DNA of 4,243 nucleotides. It comes from Qubevirus faecium. Each line of letters begins with the position of its first letter. Positions within the stretch are counted from its first letter, which is position 1. The notes under the pieces were generated by a model, which did no database searches, had not been told where the DNA came from, and worked only from the letters and a program-made list of their open reading frames with translations. The stretch lies in sequence record FJ539133.1; one strand, given 5' to 3'. Positions 53 through 4,178 of the stretch are shown in pieces. The position numbers and the translations under genes are program-made.

Positions 53-1378
53 ATGCCAACCCTTCCGAGAGGTCTTCGCTTCGGATCGAACGGCGAGGTC
101 GTTAACGACTTCAACGCGCTCTGGTTTCCAGAGCGCGAAACCTTCGACTCCGGGCTTGGATCCTACGAACTCACTGGTTACGTAAGTAATCAGCCGGGAT
201 ACGAGACACGCATGCGTAATCCTAGCATGCATTGTATTCGTACACCGCACAGAAGTACGGTGCCAGTTAACCATCTTGGTTACAGGCCTGTTACGACTGT
301 TGAGTACACTCCTAATGGGACTTTCATCCGCCTTGACGGGGATGTGAAGTTTTCCGGTGGAGCGGTCAGTGGGTCGCTCAAACTTAGCAACTATGTTGTT
401 AACTTGGCGGCCCAGGGTGGCTTCGATTACCAGTCGGTAATCGGTCCAAGGTTCTCTGCGCAATTCGCTGCGTTCAGTACCAAGTATGGTACGTTACTAG
501 GCGAAGGGAGAGAAACACTTAGTTATCTTCTCCTGCTGTTTCGCAGGGTGCGTGAAGGGATCCGCGCTGTAAAGCACGGTGATCTCAAGCGCCTCAGGAA
601 TCTGATACGTACGTTCGAGCCGCGCTCCGTTCCCGGAAAGCGGCAAAGAGCATCGTTCTCAGAAGCCTATCGCGACAGAACTGCCAATGGCAGTTGGAAA
701 GACAGTAGTGCGAGTGACCTGTGGTTAGAATTCCGTTACGGGTTGATGCCGTTATTTTACGACATCCAGTCCGTAATGGAAGACTTCATGCGTGTCCATA
801 AGAAGATCGCGAAACTTCAGCGATTCTCTGCAGGACACGGCAAGCTAGTTGAGGTAAAGGGTAAGTTCTTCCCTGATCCTCACTTCGCTCTTGAGGTCAC
901 CGCAGTGTTGCAGCGGCGTCATCGTTGGGGGGTGATATACCAGGATACTGGTTCGTTCGCCACCTTCAATAATGGTCGGCTAATCCCGGTGAGGGATTGG
1001 CAGACAGCGGCTTTAGCACTCCTTAATCCCGCCGAGACTGCTTGGGAGTTAACTCCTTACAGTTTCGTCGCGGATTGGTTTGTTAATGTAGGTGATATGC
1101 TCGAGCAGATCGGCCAGCTCTATCGCCATGTCGACGTTGTCGACGGGTTTGATAGAAAGGACGTGAAGCTCAAGAGCGTGTCGGTACGTGTCATAAGAGA
1201 CGACGCGACGCACACGTCTTTCAGCTTAGCTGGAGCGGTGTTGTTGCATAGTTTCTATTCGCGCGTGCATACCGTTGCGTTTCCGCAAATCTCACCACAA
1301 CTCGATACTGAGATACGTAGTGTTAAACACGTAATCGACAGTATTGCCCTTTTAACTCAGCGTTTTAAAAGACGCTAA
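53..1378 (+). CDS. A2: Maturation (A2) protein; in Qbeta-like phages also the lysis effector
   Basis: 441-aa ORF, ATG start, TAA stop, first gene after the 5' UTR. The translation (MPTLPRGLRFG..., LWLEFRYGLMPLFYDI, AWELTPYSFVADWFVNVGDMLEQIGQLY, VVDGFDRKDVKLKS, LLTQRFKRR) closely matches the Qbeta A2 protein as I recall it. Confidence 0.93.
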   Translation: MPTLPRGLRFGSNGEVVNDFNALWFPERETFDSGLGSYELTGYVSNQPGYETRMRNPSMHCIRTPHRSTVPVNHLGYRPVTTVEYTPNGTFIRLDGDVKFSGGAVSGSLKLSNYVVNLAAQGGFDYQSVIGPRFSAQFAAFSTKYGTLLGEGRETLSYLLLLFRRVREGIRAVKHGDLKRLRNLIRTFEPRSVPGKRQRASFSEAYRDRTANGSWKDSSASDLWLEFRYGLMPLFYDIQSVMEDFMRVHKKIAKLQRFSAGHGKLVEVKGKFFPDPHFALEVTAVLQRRHRWGVIYQDTGSFATFNNGRLIPVRDWQTAALALLNPAETAWELTPYSFVADWFVNVGDMLEQIGQLYRHVDVVDGFDRKDVKLKSVSVRVIRDDATHTSFSLAGAVLLHSFYSRVHTVAFPQISPQLDTEIRSVKHVIDSIALLTQRFKRR

Positions 1379-1396: not shown

Positions 1397-1795
1397 ATGG
1401 CAAAATTGAATAAGGTTACGCTTACCGGTATTGGTAAGGCTGGAGATCAGACTTTAACTCTTACACCGCGTGGGGTAAATCCCACTAACGGCGTGGCGTC
1501 GCTATCTGAAGCTGGAGCTGTTCCGGCGTTGGAGAAGCGAGTAACTGTGTCAGTTGCTCAGCCATCTCGTAACCGTAAGAACTATAAGATCCAGATTAAA
1601 CTCCAGAACCCGACTGCATGCACGAAGGACGCATGCGACCCTTCTGTGACGCGTTCCGCGTTCGCGGACCTAACGCTGTCGTTCACGTCGTATTCTACTG
1701 ACGTTGAACGTGCGCTAGTTCGCACTGAACTGGCAGCTCTGTTGAAGGATGATTTGATTGTCGATGCTATTGACAATCTTAATCCTGCATACTGA
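1397..1795 (+). CDS. cp: Major coat protein
   Basis: 132-aa ORF separated from A2 by an 18-nt intergenic region (TTTTGGGTCAATTCGATC) that resembles the Qbeta coat initiation region. The translation (AKLNKVTLTGIGKAGDQTLTLTPRGVNPTNGVASLSEAGAVPALEKRVTVSV...NPTACTKDACDPSVTR...LNPAY) is Qbeta/SP-like, including the two Cys of the disulfide-forming loop. It ends at TGA 1793-1795. Confidence 0.95.
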   Translation: MAKLNKVTLTGIGKAGDQTLTLTPRGVNPTNGVASLSEAGAVPALEKRVTVSVAQPSRNRKNYKIQIKLQNPTACTKDACDPSVTRSAFADLTLSFTSYSTDVERALVRTELAALLKDDLIVDAIDNLNPAY

Positions 1796-2389
1796 GCAGC
1801 GTTACTGGCAGCCTCGCCGGGTGGCGGGAATAATCCCAACCCTGGCGTCCCGGATAGTCCGAACGTCAAGCCGCCTGGCGGTACAGGCACCTATCGGTGC
1901 CCGTTCGCCTGCTACCGCCGTGGTGAACTCATCACGGAGGCTAAGGACGGAGCTTGTGCGCTTTATGCGCTTGGCAGTGAGGCCATAGTTGAGTTCGATT
2001 ACGCTCTTGAGGATTTCCTCGGGAACGTGTTCTGGCGCAACTGGGACGGTCGCTTATCGACATACGATATCGACACTCACCGTCGTTGTCGCGGTAACGG
2101 GTACGTTGACCTAGACGCAACCATGATGCAGTCAGACGCTTATGTATTGTCTGGCGCTTATGATGTTGTCAAGATGCAACCACCCAGTATCTTCGACTCC
2201 CCTAGGTACTACCTCCATCTAATGGATGGTATCTATGTGGACTTAGCCGAGGTAACGGCATACCATTCTTACGGAATGGTCATTGGCTTCTGGACAGACT
2301 CTAAGAGCCCGCAGCTGCCAACCGACTTTACGCGTTTTAACGGGCGTAACTGCCCCGTACAGACCGTAATCGTCATACCCTCACTTTAA
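1397..2389 (+). CDS. A1: Minor capsid protein A1 (coat read-through protein, about 330 aa)
   Basis: Same frame as coat. No stop between 1796 and 2386, and no ATG/GTG/TTG in the first 77 codons of the extension, so independent initiation is unlikely. The extension begins with a Gly/Pro/Asn-rich linker (SPGGGNNPNPGVPDSPNVKPPGGTG) followed by GTYRCPF...CRGNGYVDLDAT...AYHSYGMVIGFW...CPVQTVIVIP, which parallels the Qbeta A1 extension (PGTGKYTCPF...CRGNGYIDLDAT...AYHADGVIVGFW...CPIQAVIVVP). The total of about 330 aa compares with 329 aa for Qbeta A1. Confidence 0.85.
1793..1795 (+). promoter_or_regulatory. Leaky UGA stop codon of the coat gene (translational read-through site)
   Basis: The coat frame stays open for 197 further codons after TGA, to TAA 2387-2389. 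The local context is TAC TGA GCA. In Qbeta the coat UGA is occasionally read as Trp to make A1. Confidence 0.8.
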
Positions 2390-2397
2390 GCAACTTA

Positions 2398-2403
2398 AAG
2401 GAG
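2398..2403 (+). promoter_or_regulatory. Shine-Dalgarno sequence of the replicase gene
   Basis: AAGGAG lies 5 nt upstream of ATG 2409. Confidence 0.65.
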
Positions 2404-2404
2404 A

Positions 2405-2424
2405 TAGCATGTCTAAGACAGCTA
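2405..2424 (+). promoter_or_regulatory. Replicase translational operator hairpin (coat-protein binding site spanning the replicase start codon)
   Basis: TAGCATGTCTAAGACAGCTA folds as an 8-bp stem (2405-2408 and 2410-2413 paired with 2417-2424), with a bulged A at 2409 (the A of the AUG) and a 3-nt loop UAA (2414-2416). The geometry and sequence match the Qbeta operator AUGCAUGUCUAAGACAGCAU. Confidence 0.7.
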
Positions 2425-4139
2425 GTCACAAGAAGAAAATTACTCAAGCATTGAGTAAGGTCGACATCAACTTTGAAGACGACATCCATATGTCTATTGC
2501 CAATGACCTCTTTGAGGCCTACGGCATTGCACCTCTTGCGTCGGCGGAGCAGTGTATCAGCACTCCGTTCCCTGACACTTCAATGGACGCTGATGCATTT
2601 CGCATCCATTACCTGCGTTCAGAGATCCTTAGCAAGTTCAGTGCGCACCCTCTCGGTATTGATACCGAAGCGGCCGCCTGGGAAAAGTTCCTGGCTGCCG
2701 AGGAGGGTTGTAGACAAACCAACGAACGTCTCACTAAGGTTAAGTACCATGATAATTCCATTTTGTCATGGGGCGAGCGTGTTATTCACACTGCTCGTCG
2801 AAAAATACTTAAACTGATCGGTGAGACTGTCCCGCTGGGGGATGTGGCGTTGCGCGCCCGATTTTCGGGAGGCGCTACGACCTCGGTTAACCGTTTACAC
2901 GGTCACCCGTCGTGGAAGCATGCCTGTCCGCAGGATGTAACCAAACGTGCACTGAAATACCTAATGGCCTATAAAAAGGCCTGTGGTGACGTCGTTGATT
3001 TACGCGTCAATGAGGTGCGCACTTCAAATAAAGCAGTCACTGTTCCAAAGAACAGCAAAACTGATCGTTGCATTGCCATCGAGCCCGGCTGGAATATGTT
3101 TTTCCAGTTAGGCGTAGGTGCTGTGCTCCGCGATAGGTTGCGCCTTTGGCAGATTGATCTTAATGACCAATCTGTTAATCAGCGCCTCGCACGCGATGCG
3201 TCGCAGTTGGACCATTTGGCCACTGTCGACTTATCAGCAGCAAGTGATTCGATAAGCTTACGGCTTGTTGAATTGCTAATGCCGCCTGCTTGGTTTGATC
3301 TCCTGACCGATCTCCGATCGGACCAGGGTGTCCTGCCAGATGGGCGTGTCGTTACTTACGAGAAAATATCCTCCATGGGTAATGGCTACACTTTCGAGCT
3401 GGAGTCGCTAATCTTTGCGGCCCTAGCCAGGAGTGTGTGCGAGTTGTTGGACCTTGACCAGTCAACCGTCAGCGTGTACGGTGATGATATAATCATCGAC
3501 TCACGTGCCGCTGATGTCCTGATGGCGGTTTTTGAGTATGTTGGGTTCACGCCTAACAGAAAGAAGACTTTCATTAAGGGCCCCTTTAGAGAGTCGTGCG
3601 GTAAGCACTGGCACTCCGGGGTTGACGTAACGCCCTTTTACATACGCCGCCCAATCCGTTGCCTAGCCGACATGATACTTGTTTTAAACAGTATATATCG
3701 GTGGGGCACGATTGACGGGGTGTGGGATCCTAGAGTACTGCCTGTGTACCAGAAGTACGTGAAGCTGCTACCAAGAGATTGGCGGCGCAACACTATACCT
3801 GATGGTTACGGTGACGGTGCTCTCGTCGGATTGGCCACGACTAACCCATTCGTTATCGTCCGGAATTATTCCAGATGGTATCCTGTGTTGGTTGAGGTCC
3901 AGAGGGATGCTAAGCGTCACGAGTTTGGCAGTTACTTATATGCCTTGCTGCGTGACCGCGAAGCACGTTACAATCCCTTCCTGCGTACTGCAGATGGGAG
4001 TGGGTTTGATGAAACACCGCTAGCTACTAGCCTTCGTCGCAAGACAGGTCGGTACAAAGTGGCGTGGATTCAGGACAGTGCCTTCATCCGGCCCCCTTAT
4101 TTTATTAAGGGAATTCCCGAGGTGAAGCTTGCGAGCTAG
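2409..4139 (+). CDS. rep: RNA-dependent RNA polymerase (replicase beta subunit)
   Basis: 576-aa ORF, ATG start, TAG stop. Contains the D-x4-D motif A (DLSAASD, 3228..3248) and the catalytic YGDD (3477..3488). The N-terminus MSKTASHKKKITQALSKVDINFEDD and much of the sequence are Qbeta/SP replicase-like; the length equals what I recall for the SP-group replicase. Confidence 0.95.
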   Translation: MSKTASHKKKITQALSKVDINFEDDIHMSIANDLFEAYGIAPLASAEQCISTPFPDTSMDADAFRIHYLRSEILSKFSAHPLGIDTEAAAWEKFLAAEEGCRQTNERLTKVKYHDNSILSWGERVIHTARRKILKLIGETVPLGDVALRARFSGGATTSVNRLHGHPSWKHACPQDVTKRALKYLMAYKKACGDVVDLRVNEVRTSNKAVTVPKNSKTDRCIAIEPGWNMFFQLGVGAVLRDRLRLWQIDLNDQSVNQRLARDASQLDHLATVDLSAASDSISLRLVELLMPPAWFDLLTDLRSDQGVLPDGRVVTYEKISSMGNGYTFELESLIFAALARSVCELLDLDQSTVSVYGDDIIIDSRAADVLMAVFEYVGFTPNRKKTFIKGPFRESCGKHWHSGVDVTPFYIRRPIRCLADMILVLNSIYRWGTIDGVWDPRVLPVYQKYVKLLPRDWRRNTIPDGYGDGALVGLATTNPFVIVRNYSRWYPVLVEVQRDAKRHEFGSYLYALLRDREARYNPFLRTADGSGFDETPLATSLRRKTGRYKVAWIQDSAFIRPPYFIKGIPEVKLAS

Positions 4140-4178
4140 ACACTAGCTCGTAATGGGAAGGGGCCTCTTTGAGGTCCC

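Follow-up and report, generated by a model that had tools for sequence, protein, structure and literature searches.

The hairpin at positions 2405-2424 of the window, by which we mean the whole stretch of DNA that was analysed, i.e. the complete 4243-nt genome of Qubevirus faecium, a group IV allolevivirus, is very probably the translational operator of the replicase gene and the orthologue of the Qbeta operator. The evidence consists of the structure of the hairpin, its position, its conservation and covariation in related genomes, and the conserved RNA-binding residues of the coat protein. This is a textbook regulatory element that has been re-identified, which adds little. It may nevertheless be regarded as a positive control, i.e. 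a functional RNA hairpin that was recognisable to a first-stage reader from sequence alone.

The genome and its genes

The sequence begins with GGGG and finishes with CCCA. It is almost certainly FJ539133, i.e. strain HB-P24, which was isolated from a bird. The coat and replicase proteins are exactly identical to ACT66754.1 and ACT66756.1, respectively (GenBank, 4243-nt record), and the genome has been publicly deposited since 2009. In the accession series these two proteins come between HB-P22 (FJ539132) and BR1 (FJ539134), and HB-P24 is the one listed group IV strain that is left after elimination of the others. The Pfam domains Phage_mat-A, Levi_coat, Read-through and RNA_replicase_B were found, and the UGA stop codon of the coat gene is read through in frame to give A1, the read-through domain of which ends at 2389. 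The nearest record in the phage collection is NL95 (90.8% identity), followed by HB-P22 (83.8%) and by SP and FI (both approximately 80%). Only patchy nucleotide matches to Qbeta were found in the same search, and the overall identity to Qbeta is 55%.

Table 1. Coordinates of the genes and RNA elements referred to in the text.
Feature	Position	Strand	Remarks
Maturation/A2 reading frame	53-1378		
Coat protein gene, trans-acting repressor	1397..1795	+	132 aa; UGA stop
Predicted long-range helix, partner in the coat gene	1636..1650	+	Codons CDPSVT
Upstream hairpin	2380..2403	+	10 bp, bulged A2383, loop CAA
Replicase Shine-Dalgarno sequence (SD), AAGGAG	2398..2403	+	5 nt upstream of the AUG; in the 3' arm of the upstream hairpin
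Operator hairpin	2405..2424	+	4 bp, bulged A, 4 bp, 3-nt loop UAA
Replicase initiation codon AUG	2409..2411	+	A2409 bulged (Qbeta A+1); U2410 and G2411 in the upper stem
Replicase beta-subunit gene, regulated cistron	2409..4139	+	576-aa RNA_replicase_B reading frame
Operator loop U+6 A+7 A+8	2414..2416	+	A2415 = Qbeta A+7 (stacked on Tyr); A2416 = the essential A+8 of Qbeta
Predicted long-range helix, 3' strands	2425..2463	+	2425-2435 and 2459-2463; abut the operator and enclose the hairpin 2440-2458

Structure of the hairpin

The initial annotation had proposed an 8-bp stem with a bulged A and a UAA loop at this site (UAGCAUGUCUAAGACAGCUA), and the proposal is exact to the base, both in the sequence, which is segmented into UAGC, A, UGUC, UAA, GACA and GCUA, and in the minimum free energy (MFE) structure. 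All of the 4 + 4 stem pairs are Watson-Crick pairs, i.e. U2405-A2424, A2406-U2423, G2407-C2422 and C2408-G2421 in the lower stem and U2410-A2420, G2411-C2419, U2412-A2418 and C2413-G2417 in the upper stem. The AUG had also been rightly placed inside the stem: since the replicase reading frame begins at A2409, the A of the initiation codon is the bulge, and its U and G are paired in the upper stem.

Folding of the region, which had been named as a check, gave the same picture at every scale. The hairpin is both the MFE and the centroid structure of the isolated 20-mer (RNAfold, -5.9 kcal/mol), the fold is identical in contexts of 41, 71 and 131 nt, the pair probabilities are between 0.84 and 1.00 in contexts of 120 to 1220 nt, and all eight pairs are retained in the MFE structure of the full-length genome. 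The stability as such is modestly unusual (z = -2.4), and 9 out of 200 shuffled sequences fold equally well. The full motif, i.e. 4 bp, a bulged A, 4 bp and an NNA loop, has a single match in the 4243 nt, and this match is at the replicase start; the expectation is 0.11 per dinucleotide-shuffled genome. By our own arithmetic, the chance that the motif overlaps the replicase AUG is roughly 5e-4. An Rfam scan of the whole genome (E <= 1) gave no match, and no family covered the operator or other elements of the genome. Our results support the annotation of a group IV operator without an Rfam model.

Conservation and covariation in Qubevirus

The regions around the replicase AUG were compared in 14 deposited Qubevirus genomes, two IMG/VR contigs and six Logan assemblies (approximately 84% identical to FJ539133). 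Each of the 23 Qubevirus sequences has a hairpin at the orthologous position, and all eight pairs are kept in 20 of them. The placement of the AUG inside the stem is strict across the compared genomes, and the consensus structure calculated by RNAalifold is the operator hairpin.

Among the nine distinct sequences, 93% of the pair cells are standard pairs, as compared to 21-49% if the partners are slid, and the covariation score was not reached by any of 500 shuffles. The bottom two pairs covary: they are U-A/A-U in FJ539133, A-U/A-U in NL95, U-A/U-A in FI and A-U/U-A in Qbeta. In other words, two out of eight pairs covary, and the upper stem is invariant. Part of the conservation of the upper stem could be due to coding, because it overlaps codons 1-4.

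The distribution of variable sites within the hairpin can be compared with the reading frame. The 5' arm (2405-2408), which is non-coding, covaries with the 3' arm, which is coding. Within the stem, synonymous third positions are either invariant, i.e. G2417 (Lys) and A2420 (Thr), or, in the case of U2423 (Ala), change only jointly with the non-coding partner 2406; in the loop, the synonymous site 2414 (Ser) is freely U or A. A2415 and A2416 are each invariant in the 23 sequences, and free variation is limited to the first loop base (2414) and to the bulge. Judging from these patterns, coding constraint does not explain the conservation of the operator.

We also scanned metagenome contigs with the 16-nt core that the operator has in common with Qbeta, which gave 85 loci. 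By BLAST against the genome one of these is a Qubevirus sequence, a duplicate of an IMG/VR contig, and the other 84 are chance matches. Apart from SP and FI, a scan of viral contigs with the coat protein gave only two Qbeta-like fragments, which bear the Qbeta operator.

Comparison with known operators

The operator of Qbeta (Qubevirus durum) is given as AUGCAUGUCUAAGACAGCAU (PMC12724129), a sequence that its close relatives share; in Qbeta it occupies nt 2348-2367, and its complex with the coat protein is PDB entry 4L8H. The hairpin had been described as nearly identical to it, and the description holds: 16 out of 20 bases are equal, and the four differences amount to two compensatory swaps, by which the bottom pairs are flipped with respect to Qbeta (U-A/A-U in FJ539133, A-U/U-A in Qbeta). 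The 16-nt core GCAUGUCUAAGACAGC is identical in both, and it is the sixth-longest exact run common to the two genomes. The two operators have the position at the replicase AUG, the 8-bp stem, the UAA loop and the bulged A of the AUG in common; the flanks and the upstream hairpin that contains the SD differ in sequence.

The definition of a Qbeta-type operator and the contacts to the coat protein, including the 3-nt loop and A+8, are described in PMC12724129. As far as a sequence can tell, every defining feature is found here, namely a 3-nt loop, an 8-bp stem, an A at the last loop position, a replicase initiation codon enclosed in the hairpin, a 5' bulged A four pairs below the loop, the orthologous position, and a coat protein with the adenine pocket and an aromatic residue. 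Location, architecture and homology all agree with the Qbeta replicase operator, and the original reading of the hairpin as an operator of the Qbeta type is supported.

In comparison with the other group IV operators, the copy in FJ539133 shows nothing distinctive. The 20-mer is the same in HB-P22 and in an environmental contig (L106), the operators of BR1 and BR8 differ from it solely in loop base 1, FI has only a compensated change in the bottom pairs and keeps the UAA loop, and NL95 has a compensated change in the bottom pairs together with an A at loop base 1. Operators of this kind at this position were known before, and the exact sequence was known from HB-P22.

Three departures from the canonical structure were seen in the genus. 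In SP (X07489; L003, 2438-2457), AUG CCA replaces AUG UCA, which creates a C.A mismatch in the upper stem and lowers the predicted stability to -1.8 kcal/mol; comparison with the SP operator had been suggested alongside that with Qbeta. The mismatch is probably real, because it is present in three separately deposited records (including L104 and L105), which means that the lineage can do without a perfect 8-bp stem. The canonical U is retained at this site in BR1 and BR8, two SP-like strains. In MX1 (L012, 2345-2370) and M11 (L013, 2346-2371), which belong to a sublineage of Qubevirus durum, the upper stem and the position of the AUG are the same and the loop is UAA or AAA, but the hairpin has 9 bp and a bulged C on the 3' side, the A of the AUG is paired and there is no 5' bulged A. 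A 5' bulged A is therefore not found throughout the genus, and it is reportedly dispensable for binding. The third case is a Logan contig (SRR17509918; L107, 2335-2354) in which the replicase starts with GUG and the bulged base is a G. As the contig comes from a single assembly, this may be natural variation or an error.

Taken as a catalogue, the natural variants, i.e. flips of the bottom pairs, U or A at loop base 1, A or G in the bulge, the C.A mismatch of SP and the 3' bulge of MX1 and M11, indicate the positions where selection tolerates change.

The operator of MS2/R17 (TR, Emesvirus) is likewise a hairpin of approximately 20 nt at the replicase start, which is bound by a coat dimer via adenine pockets and a stacking aromatic residue. 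Its stem comprises 7 bp and is closed by a loop of 4 nt, with a bulged A two pairs below this loop and the AUG at the 3' end of the stem. An MS2-type operator was rejected for FJ539133 on account of the 3-nt loop, the 8-bp stem and a bulge that is four pairs, rather than two, below the loop.

The coat protein

The coat protein is 78% identical to that of Qbeta. The two proteins have the same fold. Every Qbeta capsid entry of the PDB is matched, among them the coat-operator complex 4l8h (E 1e-56), and the match to the MS2 coat protein is weak (E 5.5e-07). The adenine pocket of the Qbeta coat is formed by a Ser, a Gln and a Lys residue (PMC12724129). The corresponding residues, Ser51, Gln65 and Lys67, are identical in 15 out of 15 aligned genomes.

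The same complete identity (15/15) is seen for Asn30, Val32, Arg47, Thr49, Arg59, Lys60, Asn61, Lys63, Asp91 and Thr93, which, outside the pocket, we take to be the residues that touch the RNA in the MS2 and Qbeta structures. Residues 30, 32, 47, 49, 51, 59-67, 91 and 93 are the same as in Qbeta.

Residue 89 distinguishes the two groups. All group III genomes have Tyr here, and Phe is found in FJ539133 (codon 89 = 1661-1663) and in the other group IV genomes except NL95, i.e. in 6 out of 7 named group IV strains. In Qbeta, Tyr89 stacks on A+1 and A+7 (PMC12724129). Phe89 retains the aromatic ring for stacking, and the exchange of Tyr for Phe is probably tolerated. The equivalent change in MS2, Tyr85Phe, is said to be tolerated.

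At this site the coat protein of NL95 has SGSRD instead of the SAFAD of the others, owing to a local, GC-rich rearrangement (L001, 1645-1695). It is possibly a sequencing artefact caused by gel compression.

Phe89, the flipped bottom pairs and the tolerated mismatch of SP raise the question of whether the coat/operator pair of group IV has a slightly shifted specificity with respect to Qbeta; we consider such a shift unlikely. If the groups did discriminate each other's operators, the result would be a naturally occurring pair of orthogonal RNA-protein tags and an instance of co-evolution between RNA and protein.

Neighbouring structures at the replicase start

The operator is preceded by a second local hairpin, from which it is separated by a single nucleotide, A2404. 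This upstream hairpin is predicted at -6.8 kcal/mol (z -4.45), with pair probabilities of 0.93-1.00, and across Qubevirus there are compensatory changes at three of its pairs. Its 5' arm contains the UAA stop codon of A1 (2387-2389) and its 3' arm contains the SD. As ribosomes that terminate A1 translation would open the hairpin, the arrangement suggests that access to the replicase start is linked to termination.

On the other side, the full-length MFE structure pairs 2425-2435 and 2459-2463 with the coat gene segment 1636-1650. The long-range duplex is predicted at -17 to -20 kcal/mol in every group IV genome and at about -9 kcal/mol at the aligned group III site; the partner in the coat gene is strong in FJ539133, whereas it is weak at the aligned site of Qbeta. 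Across group IV, 97.5% of the cells of the helix are paired, and the helix is nearly invariant with little covariation. According to the folding model, the replicase start site is probably closed by this helix too.

A shift in the register of the helix was seen in FJ539133 and NL95, where a synonymous A-to-U change at 1642 occurs together with an Arg-to-Lys codon change at 2430-2432.

The operator hairpin is not the sole control on the replicase ribosome binding site, because the SD is located in the adjoining hairpin and the long-range helix probably closes the site as well.

Mechanism and alternative explanations

In RNA phages a hairpin of approximately 20 nt at the replicase start binds the coat protein and represses the replicase once coat protein has accumulated (PMC3561173; PMC6071253). 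In Qbeta, the replicase initiation site first becomes accessible through translation of the coat gene, and the replicase cistron is repressed later by excess coat protein (PMC2978339). Dimer binding, repression and its timing are taken here from the Qbeta literature; we infer that they are the same in FJ539133, with coupling to the long-range helix in addition.

The sequence of events would be as follows. On the naked RNA, the ribosome binding site would be closed by the weak local hairpins and by the long-range helix. Ribosomes that translate the coat gene would probably open the helix between 1636-1650 and 2425-2463, and early in infection the operator, at -5.9 kcal/mol, would be weak enough for initiating ribosomes to melt it. 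With the build-up of coat protein, a coat dimer would bind the operator. A2416 (A+8) is expected to enter the adenine pocket of Ser51, Gln65 and Lys67, and A2415 (A+7) and the bulged A2409 (A+1) may stack on residue 89 of the two subunits (Phe here, Tyr in Qbeta). The bound dimer would lock the AUG in the stem and block the 30S subunit next to the SD, which would result in the late shut-off of the replicase. The same coat-operator complex would probably be one high-affinity contact in capsid assembly.

By analogy with the related phages the operator probably doubles as a packaging signal. The TR of MS2/R17 is both repressor site and packaging signal (PMC3561173; PMC6071253), and in the Qbeta virion the operator is stem-loop 34, which is bound to a coat dimer (PMC8880383). 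A more far-reaching reading is that the hairpin is mainly a signal for packaging and the nucleation of assembly and that translational repression is a side effect. We regard this as a possible but clearly less probable explanation. It draws on the Qbeta virion, in which stem-loop 34 is in contact with a C/C coat dimer, as are 32 other operator-like stem-loops (PMC8880383; PMC10610835). Against it, the operator is only one among many capsid contacts in Qbeta. The genome of FJ539133 also contains two more 8-bp hairpins with an NNA loop, without a bulge (2440-2458 and 4132-4150), as compared to an expectation of 0.47 per shuffled genome. A packaging role leaves repression possible and is compatible with it, because both follow from the same binding event. 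Packaging alone, however, does not account for the constant location of the AUG within the stem, which translational control explains.

The two additional hairpins are worth describing in their own right. The hairpin 2440-2458 is located 16 nt past the operator, is nested in the predicted long-range helix and covaries in group IV. The hairpin 4132-4150 holds the replicase stop codon UAG (4137-4139) and is predicted at -10.4 kcal/mol (z -5.3). Both fit a minimal definition of operator-like hairpins and could be capsid contacts.

Far less probable than a primary role in packaging is a passive structural attenuator, i.e. that the pairing of the AUG alone lowers initiation and that the coat protein has no specific role in FJ539133. 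The arrangement of the site is in keeping with this, in that AUG and SD are each in a local hairpin and are abutted by the long-range helix, and the stacking aromatic is unlike that of Qbeta. A stem of -5.9 kcal/mol is nevertheless weak for constitutive silencing. Moreover, A+7, A+8 and the 3-nt loop, which are invariant in the 23 sequences, would be superfluous for a passive stem, although they are required for recognition by the coat protein, and the residues of the adenine pocket are invariant too.

Finally, it is hardly credible that the hairpin simply reflects conserved coding of Met-Ser-Lys-Thr-Ala or self-complementarity by chance, a reading that could appeal to its coding 3' half, to the first five residues of the replicase, which are conserved from group III to group IV, and to the 9 out of 200 shuffled 20-mers that fold equally well, but that is largely refuted because of the covariation of the non-coding 5' arm (2405-2408) with the coding 3' arm, and that is further opposed by synonymous sites that are fixed in the stem and variable in the loop and by a full motif that is expected 0.11 times per genome yet sits exactly on the AUG.

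Similarity to Qbeta within the coat gene

The longest exact run common to FJ539133 and Qbeta is the 29-nt segment 1466-1494, CCGCGUGGGGUAAAUCCCACUAACGGCGU, which corresponds to the coat codons PRGVNPTNGV. The conservation of its nucleotides is greater than the protein requires. The segment folds as a small hairpin (GUGGG/CCCAC) with a z-score of only -1.7.
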